In this document: positions 4,381 through 16,560 of the stretch, piece after piece | Position numbering within the stretch: position 1 is the first letter of the stretch | How the letters are laid out: every line of letters begins with the position of its first letter | DNA from: Candidatus Fervidifonticultor secundus | Lineage (GTDB): Bacteria; Sysuimicrobiota; Sysuimicrobiia; Sysuimicrobiales; Humicultoraceae | Assembly (NCBI GenBank): GCA_031459385.1 | Contig: JAVKIP010000017.1 | Coordinates: 1-64,000, forward strand | Length of the DNA: 64,000 nucleotides | Direction of reading: 5' to 3' | Translations under genes and position numbers: made by a program | Notes under the pieces: generated by a model | Told to the model about the DNA's origin: nothing | The model's input: only the letters and a program-made list of their open reading frames with translations | Databases searched by the model: none

Positions 4381-4650
4381 GGCCGTGCACCCCCCGTCGA
4401 CGACCGTCCCCCGGGCGGTATCCGCGTCGCTGGCTCGGACCAGGTATCCCTGCGGCACACGGGAACGCTGACGTACCGTTGCTCCCTTCCGGGCCTGGCG
4501 GGGTTGGTCAGTTCCCGTTGCACAGGACCCGGCCGTCGTCGCTGCGCGCGCAGGCCTGACCCCACGAGACGGCGCCTCTGGGCGGGAGTTCAGCCCCGCT
4601 GTAGCGGATTGCGGGTACAGGGAACCGCTAGCTCCCCGCCTAGCACGGCC
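4381..4650 (-). ncRNA. ffs: Large bacterial SRP RNA (Bacillus-type scRNA with Alu domain)
   Basis: Minus strand begins GGCCGUGCUAGGCGGGGAGCUAGCGGUUCCCUGUACCCGCAAUCCGCU (Alu), contains the Ffh-binding CCAGGCCCGGAAGGGAGCA helix, and ends GUGCACGGCC, which pairs with the 5' end; about 270 nt. Confidence 0.92.
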
Positions 4651-10667: not shown

Positions 10668-10757
10668 TGGCGGAGGAGGTGGGATTTGAACCCACGAGGC
10701 GCACAAGCGCCCAACGGTTTTCGAGACCGTCCGGGTACCGGGCTCCCGAACTCCTCC
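10668..10757 (-). tRNA. tRNA-Ser(CGA) with atypical D-arm
   Basis: GGAGGAG/CUCCUCC acceptor stem, ACGGU-CU-CGA-AA-ACCGU, long variable arm, GGUUCAAAUCC, GCCA end; extended -10 TGCTAGGAT upstream. Confidence 0.88.
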
Positions 10758-11119: not shown

Positions 11120-11520
11120 TTAACGCAGCGGTGGTCCAACGATCTCGATGCCGTGAGCACGCGCCATCTCGCTCAACCGTTGAACAGCTTCGGGCGTCGG
11201 CTCGCCGGCCGGAGGTGGTAATGTTGGCTGGTCCGCCGGACGCGCCAATGTGCGCACAAAACGCTCAAAGTCGCCGCGAGTCGTTACCGTCAGCCAGCGT
11301 GCCCCTGCTGACGACTCCACACGGTAGGTATGTGGGAGCCCCTTCGGGGCCAAGAGGGTTTGACCAGGGCTAAGCCGTCGTTCTTCGTGTCCGACCTGGA
11401 AGCGCAACGCTCCTTCTAACAGATAAAAGGCTTCATCTTCGGTGTGATGGATATGCAGAGGAGGGGAGTCGGCAAACGGGGCGCGATGCTCGATGAGCGA
11501 GATGTCGTCCTTTCCCAAGT
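11120..11520 (-). pseudogene. Cupin-domain protein (quercetin dioxygenase-like), apparently 5'-truncated or frameshifted
   Basis: PPLHIHHTEDEAFYLLEG...APKGLPHTY cupin motifs; no in-frame start with a good RBS. Confidence 0.65.
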
Positions 11521-11642
11521 GTCCTGCTGGTGTTGCCGTCAGGTTTGGGACAGGGGGTACGCTTTTTTCATGGAGGTCTCCTCCGGAGGGGACCTCATGA
11601 AAGCACACAGATGCCCGTACACTAGCTGCGACAGGCCGCACG

Positions 11643-11672
11643 TTGACAAGTTGCAGTCCCGCGCAGTAGTGT
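11643..11672 (+). promoter_or_regulatory. Sigma70-type promoter upstream of fluoride riboswitch 1
   Basis: TTGACA-N18-TAGTGT. Confidence 0.6.
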
Positions 11673-11689
11673 GAAGTTGTCAATCGCAT

Positions 11690-11736
11690 AGCGATGGAGC
11701 TCGCAGAGTTGCCCGCCGCGGGCTGATAGCTCCTAC
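11690..11736 (+). ncRNA. Fluoride (crcB) riboswitch 1
   Basis: GCGAUGGAGCUCGC...GCCCGCCGCGGGC UGAUAGCUCCUAC: conserved GAUG, P1 GCG/CGC, P2 hairpin, pseudoknot GGAGCU/AGCUCC, terminal CUAC. Confidence 0.85.
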
Positions 11737-11761
11737 TGGGCGAGACCAGTGGGAGCTTTTT
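11728..11761 (+). terminator. Riboswitch-controlled intrinsic terminator
   Basis: AGCTCCTACTGG-GCGAGA-CCAGTGGGAGCT-TTTT overlapping the pseudoknot strand. Confidence 0.85.
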
Positions 11762-11785
11762 GTATCGGTGGAGGGGGAACCCGAG

Positions 11786-12277
11786 ATGCCCGGACCGTGC
11801 TGGGTTGATGTGACGTTCCTAGAGGATGACCTATGCGAGATCACAGCCCTCCTGCCTGCCGGGCTGGCCGAACAGGAGGGGCTGGAGCGCGTGTTGTCCG
11901 AGGCGATGACGCTCTACCGCAACGACGAGGTGGCCTGGCGGCGGCTGCAATCGCAGCACGATGCCGAGGCGGAGGCTGCGCGGACGGAACTGAAGCGGAG
12001 AGAAGCCGCGGCCTTACTGGTCTCCATGCGCGCTCGCACGGTCCAGAGCGAGGTGGAGATGTATGAACTTCGGGAGCGCGTGCGAGAACTGCAGGAGCGG
12101 CACGCCGGGCAGCGGGCCCGGGCCGAGGTGCTGCAGCGCTCTGTGGTGAAGCTGCGTCGGCGCGTTGCGCAGCTGGAGGCGCGGTTGGCCAATGCGTCAC
12201 CCCGGCCGGGATCCAGCAGGTCACGCCCATCGCTGCTTGAAAAGTTCACCGACCTCTGGAGGAAGCACGATGTCTGA
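11786..12277 (+). CDS. Hypothetical coiled-coil protein A (fluoride-riboswitch-led)
   Basis: GGAGGGGG RBS before ATG 11786; heptad-rich C-terminal half; overlaps the next gene. Confidence 0.75.
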   Translation: MPGPCWVDVTFLEDDLCEITALLPAGLAEQEGLERVLSEAMTLYRNDEVAWRRLQSQHDAEAEAARTELKRREAAALLVSMRARTVQSEVEMYELRERVRELQERHAGQRARAEVLQRSVVKLRRRVAQLEARLANASPRPGSSRSRPSLLEKFTDLWRKHDV

Positions 12278-12758
12278 AGCCGTCCGGATGGTCTTCCCTC
12301 CCATGCGCAGCATCCGCCTGCGTCTCGATGGCGAACTGCGCCAGGAGCTCGAGGTGGTGATCCGGGAAAGGGGGTGGAGTGTGGAGGAGGGCGTGAAGAT
12401 CCTTCTGGGGTATGCGGCGGCTGCGTCTCGCGCCGCACATCCGTCCCCCGAAGAAACCCGGAACGAGCTGGGCGCGGCGCGGGGAGAACTCGCTGTGCTC
12501 CGACACCGCGCCTTCATGGCAGAGGACGGCATCCGGACGCTCAGGATGAACATCACGGGATTCGAGAAGTCCCTGGAGCAGTTCGAGAAGTCGCTGCCGC
12601 GACTGGAGCGCGAGCACCAGGACCTCCAGGCGCACCTGGCCAGCCTGCTGGCGGAAGCCACCCGGCGCGGCATCGATATCGCGCCTGAGGAGCCAGACGT
12701 GGTTCCTGCTCACCGCAGGCTCATCGATCTCTACCGCAAGAGGAGCGACTGGAGATAG
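12270..12758 (+). CDS. Hypothetical RHH-like + coiled-coil protein B (paralog of A)
   Basis: GGAGGA RBS, ATG 12270; SIRLRLD-GELRQELEVVIRERG-WSVEEGVKILL followed by heptads. Confidence 0.75.
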   Translation: MSEAVRMVFPPMRSIRLRLDGELRQELEVVIRERGWSVEEGVKILLGYAAAASRAAHPSPEETRNELGAARGELAVLRHRAFMAEDGIRTLRMNITGFEKSLEQFEKSLPRLEREHQDLQAHLASLLAEATRRGIDIAPEEPDVVPAHRRLIDLYRKRSDWR

Positions 12759-12842
12759 GGTATCTGCGGTGGCTGAACAGATCCGGGCGCGGACGCCGCC
12801 ATCGAACGGTTCGTTGGGAAGCCTGCGTAACTGAAGCCACCG

Positions 12843-13577
12843 TCAGTACCCGGAGCTGATGCCGCCGCGCTCCTCCAGCGGGTCGCGGCCGACCAGGAAC
12901 TCGATGGCCCGCGTCCAGGAACGGCCCTCCTCTGGCGTGAGGCCCTCTCTGCTGAAACGGTAGTCGTGCTTGCGGATGAGCTCACCGAGATCACGCACCA
13001 CAACGGCGAGGGCGGCGAGCTCGGCACCGAGCAGCCGGTGCGCTGTGGCGGAATCCCGGGCCAGCGCCAGGCCGGCCGTGAAATGCGGCAGGCACAATCC
13101 GGATGGACCGCTGAGGCGTTCCCACACGTCTCGCCGCTGGATCCGCCTGATCAGGGCGTCGAGCGCGGCGGTCTCAACCTCTTTGACCTGCTGGCAGGCC
13201 GGGCATTCCTGCGAGGGTGTGAGCGCCTTGCGTAGCTGTGCGGCAAGCGCGGGGCCCCCGCGCCAGATGGTCTTTTCCGTACCAACCCGTGCGATGTTTC
13301 GTTCCAGGTCCTGTACGAGATGGCAGTAGACGATGGCGACGCCCAGGGCATCGTGGAACTGACCCAGCGCCCAGGCATGCCGGGCGCAGAAACCGCGCGA
13401 GGCCAGCAGTTCCTCTCGGGTCTGCGGATCATTGACCCGTTCGTAGAGGAATCCCCAGAGGTAACGTCGGGTGCGTTTGTACGCGACACGACAGACGGGA
13501 CAGCCTCCTTCGGCCAGGGCATCCTTGACCGCGAAGAAGACGATGTCGTCGTCGGGAACCGGTGCAGGCGCGCTCAT
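12843..13577 (-). CDS. DUF6062-like Cys/His-rich (probable Zn-binding) protein
   Basis: GCPVC...ERVND...SRGFCARH...CPAC...GLCLPH...HDYRF; ATG overlaps the MFS stop. Confidence 0.7.
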   Translation of the reverse strand: MSAPAPVPDDDIVFFAVKDALAEGGCPVCRVAYKRTRRYLWGFLYERVNDPQTREELLASRGFCARHAWALGQFHDALGVAIVYCHLVQDLERNIARVGTEKTIWRGGPALAAQLRKALTPSQECPACQQVKEVETAALDALIRRIQRRDVWERLSGPSGLCLPHFTAGLALARDSATAHRLLGAELAALAVVVRDLGELIRKHDYRFSREGLTPEEGRSWTRAIEFLVGRDPLEERGGISSGY

Positions 13578-14815
13578 CGTCTCACCGCCCGTACCCGCCC
13601 AAGGAGCGCCGCCCCGCCCAGCGTCAGCACCGCCGCGTACACGAATGCGGGACGGGCGCCGAACGCCGTCCATAAGCCGCCGACCGCAAGGCCGCTCACT
13701 AAGTCGCCGATGCCGTTGACCGCGGCCAGGACGCCGTAGCCCGTGCTGCGCACTTCGGGCGGCAGCAGATCCGCGGCCATCGCCCCTTCCATTGCGTCCA
13801 CGAGCGCGATGTAGATGCCGGCAAGCACGAAGGCAAAGACGAGGTGCATCAGCCCGGCGCCCGGAGCGATGAGCACAAGGTTCATGGCGGCGAAGAGCGC
13901 GTAGCCGGTGACCAGCAGCCCGCGTTTCCCGAGCCGGTCGGCGATGAAGCCCGCAGGGAAGGAGCCGACGGCATAGAGGGCGTTGTGCAGCGTGTAGAGG
14001 CCGACGGCAACGGCGGCGGCACGGGCGGCGCCCAGCGACGGGGTGAGCACGGTCTGGGCGTAGAGGACAAGAAACGTGTGGGCGTAGTTGCCCATTCCGA
14101 AGACCCCCGCGCTGCCGAGGAACCAGCGGAACTGCGCGGGAAGACGTCGCAACGAGGTCCGGAAGCGAAGCGTGGGGTCCGGGTGGCGCGGCGGTTCGCG
14201 CACCAGGATGGCCACGCAGAGCACGGAGAGGGCGCCAGGAATCGTGGAGATCCAGAAAGCGTGTCGGAGTCCCAGCACCGGGAGGAGTAGGGTCCCGGTT
14301 AGCGGTCCGAGCACGGCGCCCAGGGTGTCCATCCCCCGGTGGAAACCGAACGCCCGGCCGTAGGCGGTCGGCGGCGTGGCGTCGGCGAGCAGGCTGTCGC
14401 GAAGGGGATTGCGCAGGCCGCGGCCGGCCCAGGCCACAGTGCGCAGGGTCACCACCTGCCACCAGGCGGTGACGATGGCGAAGAGGGCCATGATCGGCGT
14501 GGCCAGATACCCGAGAACGAGCAGGGGTTTTCGGTTGGCAATGCGATCGCCGTAGGCGCCTCCGGCGAGCTTCATGCCAGTGCTCGCGGCGTCGGACAGT
14601 CCCTCGACGACCCCGAGGGCGATCGGCGGTGCACCCAGCGATGTCAGAAGAGCGGGCATCAGCGACGTGGCCAATTCGTGTCCCCAGTCGGAGAACAGAC
14701 TGGTCAGCCCGACGCCCAGCAGGGTGCGGTTCAGCCAGCCTGGGGCGGCTGCGGCCGCCGGGCTCGCAGCTACCGCTTCTGTTGCTGTTGGGGCCCGACG
14801 ACCAGGACCATGCAT
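13574..14815 (-). CDS. MFS transporter
   Basis: About 12 hydrophobic segments; GAYGDRIANRK and GFIADRLGKR MFS motif A; start position uncertain. Confidence 0.88.
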   Translation of the reverse strand: MHGPGRRAPTATEAVAASPAAAAAPGWLNRTLLGVGLTSLFSDWGHELATSLMPALLTSLGAPPIALGVVEGLSDAASTGMKLAGGAYGDRIANRKPLLVLGYLATPIMALFAIVTAWWQVVTLRTVAWAGRGLRNPLRDSLLADATPPTAYGRAFGFHRGMDTLGAVLGPLTGTLLLPVLGLRHAFWISTIPGALSVLCVAILVREPPRHPDPTLRFRTSLRRLPAQFRWFLGSAGVFGMGNYAHTFLVLYAQTVLTPSLGAARAAAVAVGLYTLHNALYAVGSFPAGFIADRLGKRGLLVTGYALFAAMNLVLIAPGAGLMHLVFAFVLAGIYIALVDAMEGAMAADLLPPEVRSTGYGVLAAVNGIGDLVSGLAVGGLWTAFGARPAFVYAAVLTLGGAALLGRVRAVRR

Positions 14816-15213
14816 GGCGCGTGATCCACGACGCGGTCGGCGACGCTGCCGACAAAGAACCGCTGCAGGTTCGACATCCCGCGGTGCCCCATGACGATAA
14901 GGTCGACCCCCCGGGCGCGGGCGTAGTCAACGATGGCCTCCGCCGGGTGTCCGGCGACGATCTCCACGCGCGGGTCGATGCCGTGCAGACGCGCATACTC
15001 GACGGCCTCGCGCTGGAACCGCTCCACCACCTGCCGCTGTTCCTGCCGCGTCTCCTCCACTTCGCCCACGGTGGCCGGGAAGGCCGGCCCGTGGATCGCC
15101 GTGAGCAGGGTCACCGAGGCGCCGTAGCGGACGGCGAGGTCCACGCCGACCTGGACGGCACGCCGCGCCTGCTCCGAGCCGTCATGAGGAATCAGGATCT
15201 GCCGGATCGTCAT
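14770..15213 (-). CDS. Universal stress protein (UspA family)
   Basis: ILIPHDGS...DLIVMGHRG...GSVADRVVDHAPCMVLVV. Confidence 0.92.
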   Translation of the reverse strand: MTIRQILIPHDGSEQARRAVQVGVDLAVRYGASVTLLTAIHGPAFPATVGEVEETRQEQRQVVERFQREAVEYARLHGIDPRVEIVAGHPAEAIVDYARARGVDLIVMGHRGMSNLQRFFVGSVADRVVDHAPCMVLVVGPQQQQKR

Positions 15214-16382
15214 CCCAACTCCTCCTCGGTGGGTACGGGCTGCCAGGCACCCTCCGGACGAGACCGGGCGACCGCCGCTCGGCGAGGATCAAACCATCGC
15301 TGAGCGATCATCGTGGGCAGGACGGCGCTGGCGATGACCGTGGTGACCAGCAGCGAGAACTGCGTGCGATCGATGATGCCCGCATGAAGGCCATACAGCG
15401 ATGAGATTGTTCCGAAGGTGAGCCCGGTGCTCATCAGGAGCGTGGTGTAGATCGGCCCATCGGCCGCGTACCAGCGGGCCAGGGGCAGTACCCCGGCGAC
15501 CTTGGTGGCCATCTTCACTCCAAAGAGTACGGCCAGCACACCCAGATTAGCATAGACGGCGGGCAGCGCCACGTTCATCCCGGCTTTGACGAAGAAGAAC
15601 GGCGTGAGCAAAGCAAAGGCGACCACCCGGAACCGCTGTTGTTCCGCGCGGTGCGCGGCGAAGACCCGCGACACGGCCAGCCCGAGCACGAAAGCCGGAA
15701 GCACGGCGTGGCTGTCGGCGAGGCTGCCGACGTACATGAGGACGAGTAACGCCGCAAAGGCGCCCTTGATCTCCGGCTCGATGACCCGATTCCCGTAGCG
15801 GCGGAAGAACCAGGGATGCAGCCGGGGCATGGCCACGATGATCGCGGCGGAGACTGCCAGGAAGCCCGCGATCCACCACGTCGGATGGATGAAGAGGATG
15901 CTCAGTGCCGCGGCGGTGCCGAAGTCGGTGATGAATGTACTGGCCATGATGAGCTTGCCCAGCGGGGTGCTGGTCAGCCCGGTTTCCACGAGCACGGCAT
16001 AGACGACGGCGAGCGAGGTGGTGGACAGCGCCACGCCGGCGATCTTGGCCGCCTCCGGCGACCAGCGCAGTCCCCACCGCGCGAACGCCCAGGCGCCGAC
16101 GAACGGCAGCAGGAAGGAGACGCCCCCGATGAGGGCGCTCGCACCCAGCTTCTCGCGCAAGAGGTCGACGTCGACCTCCGCGCCGGCGAGAAACGTCAGG
16201 ACGATGCTGCCGAATCCCGCCAGGTAGTCGATCCAGGGCGTAGTGTGCAGGCCGAGGAAGTTCCCGCCGATCACTCCGAGTACGATCTCGATGAGCGCGA
16301 CCGAGATGCCCAACTCGACAGAGAGGATTGCCGCCACGAAGACGAGCAACCCCATCCCGACCGCGACCTGTGCCTCCACCAT
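15210..16382 (-). CDS. Cation:proton antiporter (CPA2/Kef-type)
   Basis: FLAGAEVD, ALSTTSLAVV, FITDFG, LTPFFF; ATG 16382 after GGAGGAG. Confidence 0.85.
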   Translation of the reverse strand: MVEAQVAVGMGLLVFVAAILSVELGISVALIEIVLGVIGGNFLGLHTTPWIDYLAGFGSIVLTFLAGAEVDVDLLREKLGASALIGGVSFLLPFVGAWAFARWGLRWSPEAAKIAGVALSTTSLAVVYAVLVETGLTSTPLGKLIMASTFITDFGTAAALSILFIHPTWWIAGFLAVSAAIIVAMPRLHPWFFRRYGNRVIEPEIKGAFAALLVLMYVGSLADSHAVLPAFVLGLAVSRVFAAHRAEQQRFRVVAFALLTPFFFVKAGMNVALPAVYANLGVLAVLFGVKMATKVAGVLPLARWYAADGPIYTTLLMSTGLTFGTISSLYGLHAGIIDRTQFSLLVTTVIASAVLPTMIAQRWFDPRRAAVARSRPEGAWQPVPTEEELG

Positions 16383-16451
16383 GCCACCGCTCCTCCCGGC
16401 CGCAGAAACAGAACGGCCCCGACGCTCCGTTGAGCCGGGGCCGGATTTCGT

Positions 16452-16483
16452 AAAAAAAGCCCCTGCCCGCAACGGGTAGAGGC
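16452..16483 (-). terminator. Riboswitch-controlled intrinsic terminator
   Basis: GCCTCTACCCG-TTG-CGGGCAGGGGC-TTTTTTT. Confidence 0.85.
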
Positions 16484-16524
16484 TATCAGCCGGGGGTCCG
16501 GCGGTTCAGGCGAGCCTCATCGCC
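16476..16524 (-). ncRNA. Fluoride (crcB) riboswitch 2
   Basis: GGCGAUGAGGCUCGCC UGAACC GCCGGACCCCCGGC UGAUAGCCUCUAC, near-canonical Thermotoga-like fluoride aptamer. Confidence 0.93.
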
Positions 16525-16532
16525 TGGCGACG

Positions 16533-16560
16533 ATTATAGTGGAGGCCGTACCGCTGTCAA
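16533..16560 (-). promoter_or_regulatory. Consensus sigma70 promoter for the riboswitch 2 operon
   Basis: TTGACA-N16-TATAAT, 8 nt upstream of the aptamer. Confidence 0.8.

Follow-up and report, generated by a model that had tools for sequence, protein, structure and literature searches.

A 64,000 bp stretch of DNA from Candidatus Fervidifonticultor secundus (assembly GCA_031459385.1, contig JAVKIP010000017.1, positions 1 to 64,000; hereafter the window) carries a fluoride riboswitch aptamer directly ahead of two short overlapping genes, which we call A and B, and it is very likely that A and B form an operon gated by that riboswitch. Judged from their sequences, the two proteins are members of a superfamily that no catalogue lists and that stands behind fluoride switches in several uncultured bacterial groups. 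A switch of a known kind thus drives a new protein family, and this family probably contributes to the fluoride response of bacteria in a way not yet described. The elements of the leader and the two genes, the latter with predicted ribbon-helix-helix-like (RHH-like) heads, are as follows.

11643-11672, forward strand: promoter-like element seen by eye, TTGACA (11643-11648), an 18-nt spacer and TAGTGT (11667-11672)
11682-11742, forward strand: fluoride riboswitch aptamer, RF01734 at 23.0 bits, with covariation over 53 aptamers
11691-11693 with 11702-11704, forward strand: helix P1 of the aptamer
11711-11715 with 11719-11723, forward strand: helix P2 of the aptamer
11696-11700 (GGAGC) with 11729-11733 (GCUCC), forward strand: pseudoknot of the aptamer
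11728-11762, forward strand: intrinsic terminator, a hairpin (11728-11757) with 12-bp stem and 6-nt loop, then TTTTT
11786-12277, forward strand: gene A, 163 residues, ATG at 11786 with GGAGG upstream; acidic RHH-like head, coiled coil and tail LLEKFTDLWRK
12270-12758, forward strand: gene B, 162 residues, ATG at 12270, paralog of A; RHH-like head with GW..EEG..ILL, helix LRHRAF...LRMN.TG, coiled coil and tail

A fluoride aptamer and competing terminator in the leader of A and B

A permissive search of 251 nt (11600-11850) with RF01734, the Rfam model of the fluoride aptamer, returned a full-length match at 11682-11742 on the forward strand (23.0 bits, E = 1.9e-4). The Rfam gathering cut-off for this model is 34 bits, an operational criterion rather than a biological one, and the gathering scan of the whole window, whose one fluoride call is the second aptamer described below, called none at 11682-11742 because this copy falls below it. 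The low score arises from P1, which has three pairs here with A/A as the outermost pair; the core, P2 and both pseudoknot arms are intact. A model built from 20 such aptamers was used to align 53 aptamers from relatives and metagenomes, the alignment being fitted to P1 and P2 with the pseudoknot left out of the model. Across this alignment 96.4% of cells are paired, compared with 38-51% in slid-partner controls, and both-sided changes are found at 9 of the 14 pairs. The pseudoknot is 100% paired even though it lay outside the alignment model, and two of its positions covary (AU 34 / GC 19 at one; AU 28 / GC 18 / GU 7 at the other). Only three cells are unpaired at the outermost P1 pair among the 53 sequences, the A/A of the window being one of them. 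Scored with a purpose-built model, R1, the window aptamer reaches 63 bits, a figure to be read knowing that this copy is itself a training row of R1. On this comparative evidence, the window RNA is a genuine member of the fluoride aptamer class and a low-scoring variant of it.

The hairpin at 11728-11757 (folding energy -22.8 kcal/mol) is the sole terminator-like site within 11400-13000. The 3' arm of the pseudoknot (11729-11733) sits inside the 5' arm of the terminator (11728-11739), so that the two structures compete as in an expression platform; such overlap of aptamer and terminator is the usual arrangement of a transcriptional ON switch. The leaders of relatives, read by eye, also carry a terminator-like stem and a T-run after the aptamer. 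Upstream, the TTGACA/TAGTGT element is placed to start an RNA at the aptamer, and inspection by eye finds TTGAC at the corresponding position of 12 out of 15 orthologous loci. The first-pass annotation, made from the letters of the window, had proposed a promoter, a fluoride aptamer and a terminator directly ahead of the genes. The aptamer is corroborated by its RF01734 match, its covarying helices and pseudoknot and its conserved position in relatives, and the terminator by its 12-pair hairpin and TTTTT; the promoter stands in part, its two elements being visible and the first recurrent, but a scan by our tool's consensus rule returned no promoter, this site included. A 10-nt inverted repeat (9/10 complementary; 11643-11652 and 11674-11683) flanks the promoter-like site and was not seen, by eye, in orthologous promoters.

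The leader anatomy, together with the known behaviour of the fluoride riboswitch class, suggests how the switch would operate. Without fluoride, the hairpin at 11728-11757 would terminate transcription; with fluoride, pairing of 11696-11700 with 11729-11733 would sequester the 5' arm of the terminator, and A and B would be transcribed as a translationally coupled two-gene operon under a transcriptional ON-type riboswitch. Induction of A-B by fluoride is what we infer from the conserved, covarying aptamer and its terminator.

Genes A and B are diverged paralogs outside catalogued families

The reading frames of A and B overlap by 8 nt. Pairwise BLASTP of the two proteins is not significant (E = 0.53); hhalign of an A profile (14 orthologs) with a B profile (15 orthologs) gives 96.9% probability (E = 1.5e-10) over 125 columns, spanning the N-terminal strand through the coiled coil. 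At the level of sequence profiles, A and B are diverged paralogs. Neither protein reaches the curated cut-off of any family in Pfam or NCBIfam, where the matches are coiled-coil noise, and searches of PHROGs and PADLOC with both gave coiled-coil noise only. The best match to any RHH model is a RelB-like hint in the first 50 residues of B (Pfam E = 0.18, 12.2 bits against a cut-off of 22.4; NCBIfam E = 0.046). Sequence searches of the PDB with the A and B profiles found no relative, returning DARPin, ankyrin and coiled-coil noise along with RelB (2k29, E = 0.067). The genes controlled by fluoride riboswitches fall into classes that we take to be CrcB, CLC-F, Na+/H+ antiporters, Usp, enolase, pyrophosphatase, MutS-like and HAD proteins, and neither A nor B matches a model of any of these above the Pfam or NCBIfam cut-off.

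These results agree with the first-pass annotation on several counts. It had listed two overlapping genes of about 162 residues, which are 163 and 162 residues long; it had judged them paralogs by eye, and hhalign pairs exactly the segments it had aligned; it had placed them among none of the known targets of fluoride riboswitches, and Pfam and NCBIfam yield no characterised family. It had also called the proteins undescribed, a description that holds for Pfam, NCBIfam, sequence relatives in the PDB and the literature searched. That literature search found no paper on the A/B family or on DUF6062, the product of a neighbouring gene discussed below, with the gene tables of Baker et al. 2012 and Weinberg et al. 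2010, where the family could sit as hypothetical proteins, lying outside its scope.

Predicted fold and pairing of A and B

An AlphaFold2 model of B from a 61-row alignment has a predicted local distance difference test score (pLDDT) of 89.5 and consists of an extended N-terminus followed by helices at 21-34, 38-54, 60-132 and 147-159, in agreement with the strand-helix-helix N-terminus, long heptad region and short tail read earlier from the sequence. In each chain the predicted RHH-like head leads into a helix of ~73 residues and then a linker rich in proline, and the chain usually ends in a basic amphipathic tail. The best PDB rows returned by Foldseek for B are nearly all RHH proteins (NikR, Arc, CopG, ParG, MatP, VapB, AtaR, CdbA, AmrZ), superposed with root mean square deviations of 1.7-2.2 Å over ~40 residues. 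Structure search of the ESM Atlas listed CopG-like clusters that lie below the search's bar, and its feature search returned unnamed clusters only, with uninformative scores of at most 0.91. A wide VIA-align structure search with the B model was set aside; it returned generic coiled coils only (Z ~7). By prediction, the head is RHH-like and stands outside every curated RHH family.

The head of A is acidic (isoelectric point, pI, 4.1; 11 D/E against 4 K/R) and that of B is near neutral to mildly basic (pI 8.3). When ribbon residues are mapped onto the strand positions that we take to face DNA in Arc, Glu is frequent there in A orthologs and in single-copy members of the family, and the positions are not conserved. 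The residues most conserved among A and B orthologs belong to helix 2 and the foot of the stalk. At the C-terminus, 48 of 75 sequences have an 11-residue stretch combining net positive charge with a hydrophobic moment of at least 0.55.

Prediction of the A:B complex gave an interaction score (ipSAE) of 0.77 in three runs, where the best of three controls scored 0.00. In a calibration set, 116 of 157 solved complexes and 2 of 215 mismatched pairs attained this mark; our runs used alignments that we had made ourselves, which makes this calibration approximate. The runs share at least 93% of contacts, with a partner pLDDT of at least 82. They place A 4-16 against B 8-21 and pack A 70-93 on helix 2 of B, and the predicted coiled coil is parallel and in register, residue i of A meeting residue i-4 of B. 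Natural fusions join A and B in one frame (L019, 290 residues, at L019:961-1830 on the reverse strand; P0020, 302 residues), and MAFFT places A homologs onto the B half of such fusions, in line with paralogy; P0049 and P0076 are tandem double-module fusions from another branch. The heteromer put forward in the first-pass annotation gains support from both the complex score and the fusions, and A and B probably form one parallel heterodimer, as modelled. Its N-terminal strands would pair into an RHH-like head, from which a coiled-coil stalk of ~70-75 residues would lead, by way of linkers rich in proline, to a pair of short tails, basic and amphipathic.

Range of the family and its linkage to fluoride riboswitches

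Among 41 related genomes, 16 (including that of the window) encode an A homolog. Of the 15 relatives' loci that were fetched, 14 have an aptamer immediately upstream in the same orientation, nine scoring at or above 34 bits and five below; the sole locus without one, L021, is the weakest protein match. RF01734 occurs in 15 of the 41 genomes, 14 of them A-positive. The other, unpublished genome G019, has its aptamer paired with CrcB and lacks A, and in G029 A stands behind a 22-bit aptamer that a stricter filter missed. The switch and A/B thus occur together or are absent together in this order, an observation on kin that are not independent and for which we make no statistical claim.

A hidden Markov model (HMM) search of 1.84 billion representative proteins with the B profile produced 90 matches at E ≤1e-3, 24 of them at E ≤1e-10; we regard four, all long repeat proteins, as spurious. 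The family is thus rare. Beside A-type and B-type proteins it includes a wider group of 130-200 residues built on the same plan, in which a strand precedes two helices bearing GW..EEGLRI, followed by a conserved helix with YAVMKFRAY...LEMNVTGL, a coiled coil and often a basic aromatic tail; none matches a Pfam family. Named records with B relatives are all metagenome-assembled genomes (MAGs), six bearing Candidatus names and the others labelled Armatimonadota, Chloroflexota or simply bacterium. The one Candidatus record checked, Candidatus Sysuimicrobium calidum, belongs to Candidatus Sysuimicrobiota, and one relative in the wider group is labelled Dehalococcoidia. Ten of the 11 named-record loci were scanned and all ten have an aptamer upstream, although these loci probably overlap the 41-genome set and are not independent of it.

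Scanning metagenomes with the wider-group alignment yielded 80 loci, which divide as follows by the position of an aptamer.

40 of 80 loci: aptamer within 250 nt upstream, same strand
4 of 80 loci: aptamer 251-1000 nt upstream, same strand
8 of 80 loci: aptamer more than 1000 nt upstream, same strand
21 of 80 loci: no aptamer, with at least 200 nt of upstream sequence available
7 of 80 loci: less than 200 nt of upstream sequence available

The linkage of homologs to upstream crcB motifs that the first-pass annotation had suggested looking for is therefore present at 52 of the 80 metagenome loci as well as at 14 of the 15 relatives' loci. Among the loci without an aptamer are some that lie inside an operon and some truncated where the contig stops; L080, for instance, is L078 lacking its start. 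Each of the 80 loci holds exactly one family domain, and therefore the A/B duplication is lineage-specific; the ancestral form of the family was presumably a homodimer. Four loci have a second aptamer (54-56 bits) beyond the A-B genes in the same orientation, at L015:2331-2395 and near 5930-6000 in L029, L030 and L031.

DUF6062, the facing operon and other neighbours

Downstream of B in the window, a second fluoride-linked operon faces A-B on the opposite strand.

12843-13577, reverse strand: DUF6062 gene, 244 residues, Pfam PF19538 at 53.2 bits (cut-off 27); closes the facing fluoride operon
13574-16472, reverse strand: facing operon, with Na_H_Exchanger open reading frame 15210-16472 (ATG 16382 being a guessed start), Usp 14770-15213 and MFS 13574-14815
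16470-16533, reverse strand: second fluoride aptamer, RF01734 at 43.6 bits (E = 9.1e-9), above the cut-off

From the aptamer at 16533, which drives this operon, the order is Na_H_Exchanger, Usp, MFS, DUF6062, convergent with A-B. Such a convergent pair is likewise seen in three relatives (G002, G007 and G022), where the two aptamers face each other ~4.5 kb apart. The first-pass annotation of A-B had missed this second, stronger switch (16470-16533, reverse strand), as well as DUF6062 as a third member of the module and the spread of the family beyond this lineage.

Aptamer, A, B and DUF6062 follow one another in that order on one strand at 10 of 14 relatives' loci; at the remaining four, DUF6062 is not inside the fetched stretch. 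An HMM of our own, built from 14 DUF6062 sequences, finds a gene at 35 of the 80 wider-family loci, which in 34 cases shares the strand of the family gene, and DUF6062 is the family's most frequent neighbour. Eight residues of DUF6062 are invariant (C26, C29, C64, H67, C125, C128, C162 and H165) and make up two CxxC...CxxH (Cys3His) sites. The DUF6062 model is all-helical (pLDDT 89.4) and found no convincing match in the PDB (Foldseek TM-scores below 0.2; best VIA-align Z 5.3, on one hairpin).

A survey of plus-strand genes in 27 longer loci of the wider group recorded the following neighbours.

9 of 27 loci: DUF6062
10 of 27 loci: pyrophosphatase domain, often within proteins of ~500 residues
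7 of 27 loci: HEAT-repeat protein
6 of 27 loci: prenyltransferase-like toroid protein
Others in the 27 loci: NUDIX, Na_H_Exchanger with Usp, MFS, enolase, phosphoglycerate-mutase-like His_Phos_1, CrcB, MutS_V

One operon recurs at six loci (L037, L042, L054, L062, L065, L067) and consists of an aptamer, the family gene, a toroid protein of ~280 residues and a protein of ~500 residues with an N-terminal pyrophosphatase, this last fusion being followed by weakly DUF6062-like, NUDIX or HEAT proteins. In P0074 a family member is fused to HEAT repeats.

The genome of the window is 97.6% complete, and neither CrcB nor CLC was found in it. Among the 41 related genomes CrcB occurs in three (one being the unpublished G019) and CLC in three. 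We considered a complementary distribution of these exporters and the A/B family and do not claim one, as presence of CrcB or CLC fails to separate A-positive from A-negative relatives. The Na/H-exchanger-like and MFS transporters of the facing operon are candidate fluoride exporters here. Elsewhere in the window are a large bacterial signal recognition particle RNA (4383-4648, reverse strand, 181.9 bits) and an 87-nt tRNA with a long variable arm (10671-10757, reverse strand).

What A and B may do

We tentatively favour, at somewhat less than even confidence, a non-enzymatic adaptor or scaffold over a DNA-binding regulator as the role of A:B, acting with DUF6062 and possibly at the membrane. 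This preference follows from the long stalk, the Pro-rich linker, the recurrent basic amphipathic tail, the adjacency of DUF6062 and the HEAT fusion. The A:B dimer and DUF6062 would then work jointly in coping with fluoride, and the tails may contact the membrane; we hold the explanation as a whole, from switch to scaffold, to be the best on offer with the same reserve. The regulator, which seems to us rather unlikely, would be an RHH transcription factor in a riboswitch-to-regulator cascade: the β-ribbon of the fluoride-induced dimer would read operators of genes that have no riboswitch, and oligomerisation or the control of partners would fall to the stalk and tails. Its appeal lies in the RHH-like head, in the mildly basic head of B (pI 8.3), in Ser14, Arg16 and Arg18 of B, which a profile alignment puts at the positions that we take to face DNA in Arc, and in MatP, which is among the Foldseek rows and is a precedent for an RHH domain with a coiled coil. 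Yet A has an acidic head, and Glu often occupies the DNA-facing positions in A and its single-copy relatives; the ribbon positions vary, whereas helix 2 and the base of the stalk are conserved; and no operator-like repeat common to orthologous promoters was seen by eye. The genes that such a factor might serve are, moreover, already provided for, with the neighbouring effector operon under its own riboswitch and the family gene usually standing first in operons of enzymes and DUF6062 under the same riboswitch.

Two further alternatives concern the link to fluoride itself. The switch in the window could have decayed to its 3-bp P1 and lost fluoride sensing, leaving A and B silent behind a constitutive terminator or otherwise expressed. 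The score of 23 bits against the 34-bit cut-off and the A/A outermost P1 pair, among three unpaired cells in 53 sequences, point that way, but nothing is missing from the core nucleotides, P2, the pseudoknot or the terminator, another locus (L009) has the same short P1 ahead of intact A and B, and A and B are themselves full-length and conserved; we consider decay very unlikely. More improbable still, to the point of being nearly negligible, is a pair of RHH proteins of toxin-antitoxin-like or mobile-element type that has nothing to do with fluoride and came to lie beside an aptamer by chance. The weak RelB-like matches in the head of B (Pfam E = 0.18; NCBIfam E = 0.046; 2k29 E = 0.067) would fit such a pair, but no toxin domain lies nearby, the neighbours in the window being cupin, DUF6062, MFS, Usp and the Na/H exchanger; members of the fluoride regulon (pyrophosphatase, enolase, CrcB, Usp, Na/H exchanger) recur as neighbours; and the aptamer linkage is repeated at 14 of 15 and 52 of 80 loci. 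Bolder than the adaptor, and in our view unlikely, is the proposal that the RHH/coiled-coil dimer and a double-zinc DUF6062 constitute a new kind of fluoride-tolerance machine that replaces the missing Fluc (CrcB) and CLC-F exporters in these hot-spring bacteria. Tethered to the membrane, it may switch Na+/H+-exchanger-like or MFS transporters to fluoride/proton handling or, alternatively, capture fluoride or metal-fluoride complexes.

Returning to the riboswitch-controlled adaptor, several observations weigh against it. The window aptamer falls short of the RF01734 gathering score (23.0 against 34 bits) with a P1 of only 3 bp, and 21 of the 80 wider-family loci have no aptamer despite 200 nt or more of upstream sequence, Rfam finding none in the 20 that were scanned. 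Coiled-coil composition can inflate both profile and complex scores. The Foldseek RHH matches are weak (E 0.4-2.7), with no Pfam RHH model at its cut-off, and Ser14, Arg16 and Arg18 occupy what we take to be the base-reading positions of Arc in the B strand. The tail signal is modest, a moment of 0.55 being reached by 67% of real and 46% of shuffled tails, and the partnership with DUF6062 is read from gene neighbourhood only.

Significance

Operons of the crcB-motif fluoride riboswitch (RF01734) are reviewed in PMC7266159, which describes these riboswitches as marking genes needed under fluoride stress and the CrcB/Fluc and CLC-F exporters as having been recognised in that way. The riboswitch logic that exposed the exporters now points to a superfamily that appears in no catalogue. 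Its genes are found repeatedly behind fluoride switches, both on many metagenome contigs and in at least two named lineages (MAGs of Candidatus Sysuimicrobiota and one Dehalococcoidia record), and are nearly always accompanied by other unexplained fluoride-linked genes, namely DUF6062, HEAT proteins and long pyrophosphatase fusions. The family is found, too, in an order where few of the searched genomes have canonical fluoride channels. If our reading is correct, two or three small, soluble and clonable genes would offer a handle on fluoride coping beyond export.

Comparison with known systems

A and B resemble RHH proteins such as Arc, CopG, NikR and ParG in their predicted strand-helix-helix head, where one strand from each of two chains would pair, and MatP in the dimerising coiled coil that follows such a head. 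They differ from RHH proteins in matching no curated RHH model, in pairing as a predicted heterodimer with one acidic head, in the variable and often acidic residues at their DNA-facing positions, and in carrying a ~73-residue stalk and a basic amphipathic tail. Antitoxins of the RelB, ParD and VapB type likewise join an RHH dimer head to a flexible C-terminal part, which binds the partner in antitoxins; A and B, however, have no toxin gene beside them, a long coiled coil inserted and a fluoride riboswitch in control. MinD and FtsA have C-terminal membrane-targeting amphipathic helices, and the tails of A and B are similar in being short, basic, aromatic and amphipathic and in following a flexible linker at the C-terminus, a resemblance of pattern only and one accompanied by modest enrichment over shuffled tails. 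Set beside other fluoride riboswitch operons, A-B stands apart in that its proteins lie outside the target classes as we take them to be and its genome has no detected CrcB or CLC; the control elements are nonetheless those of the class, with the same aptamer (P1, P2 and pseudoknot) and a terminator competing with the pseudoknot, and the operon that faces A-B carries the classical associates, an Na+/H+ exchanger and Usp.

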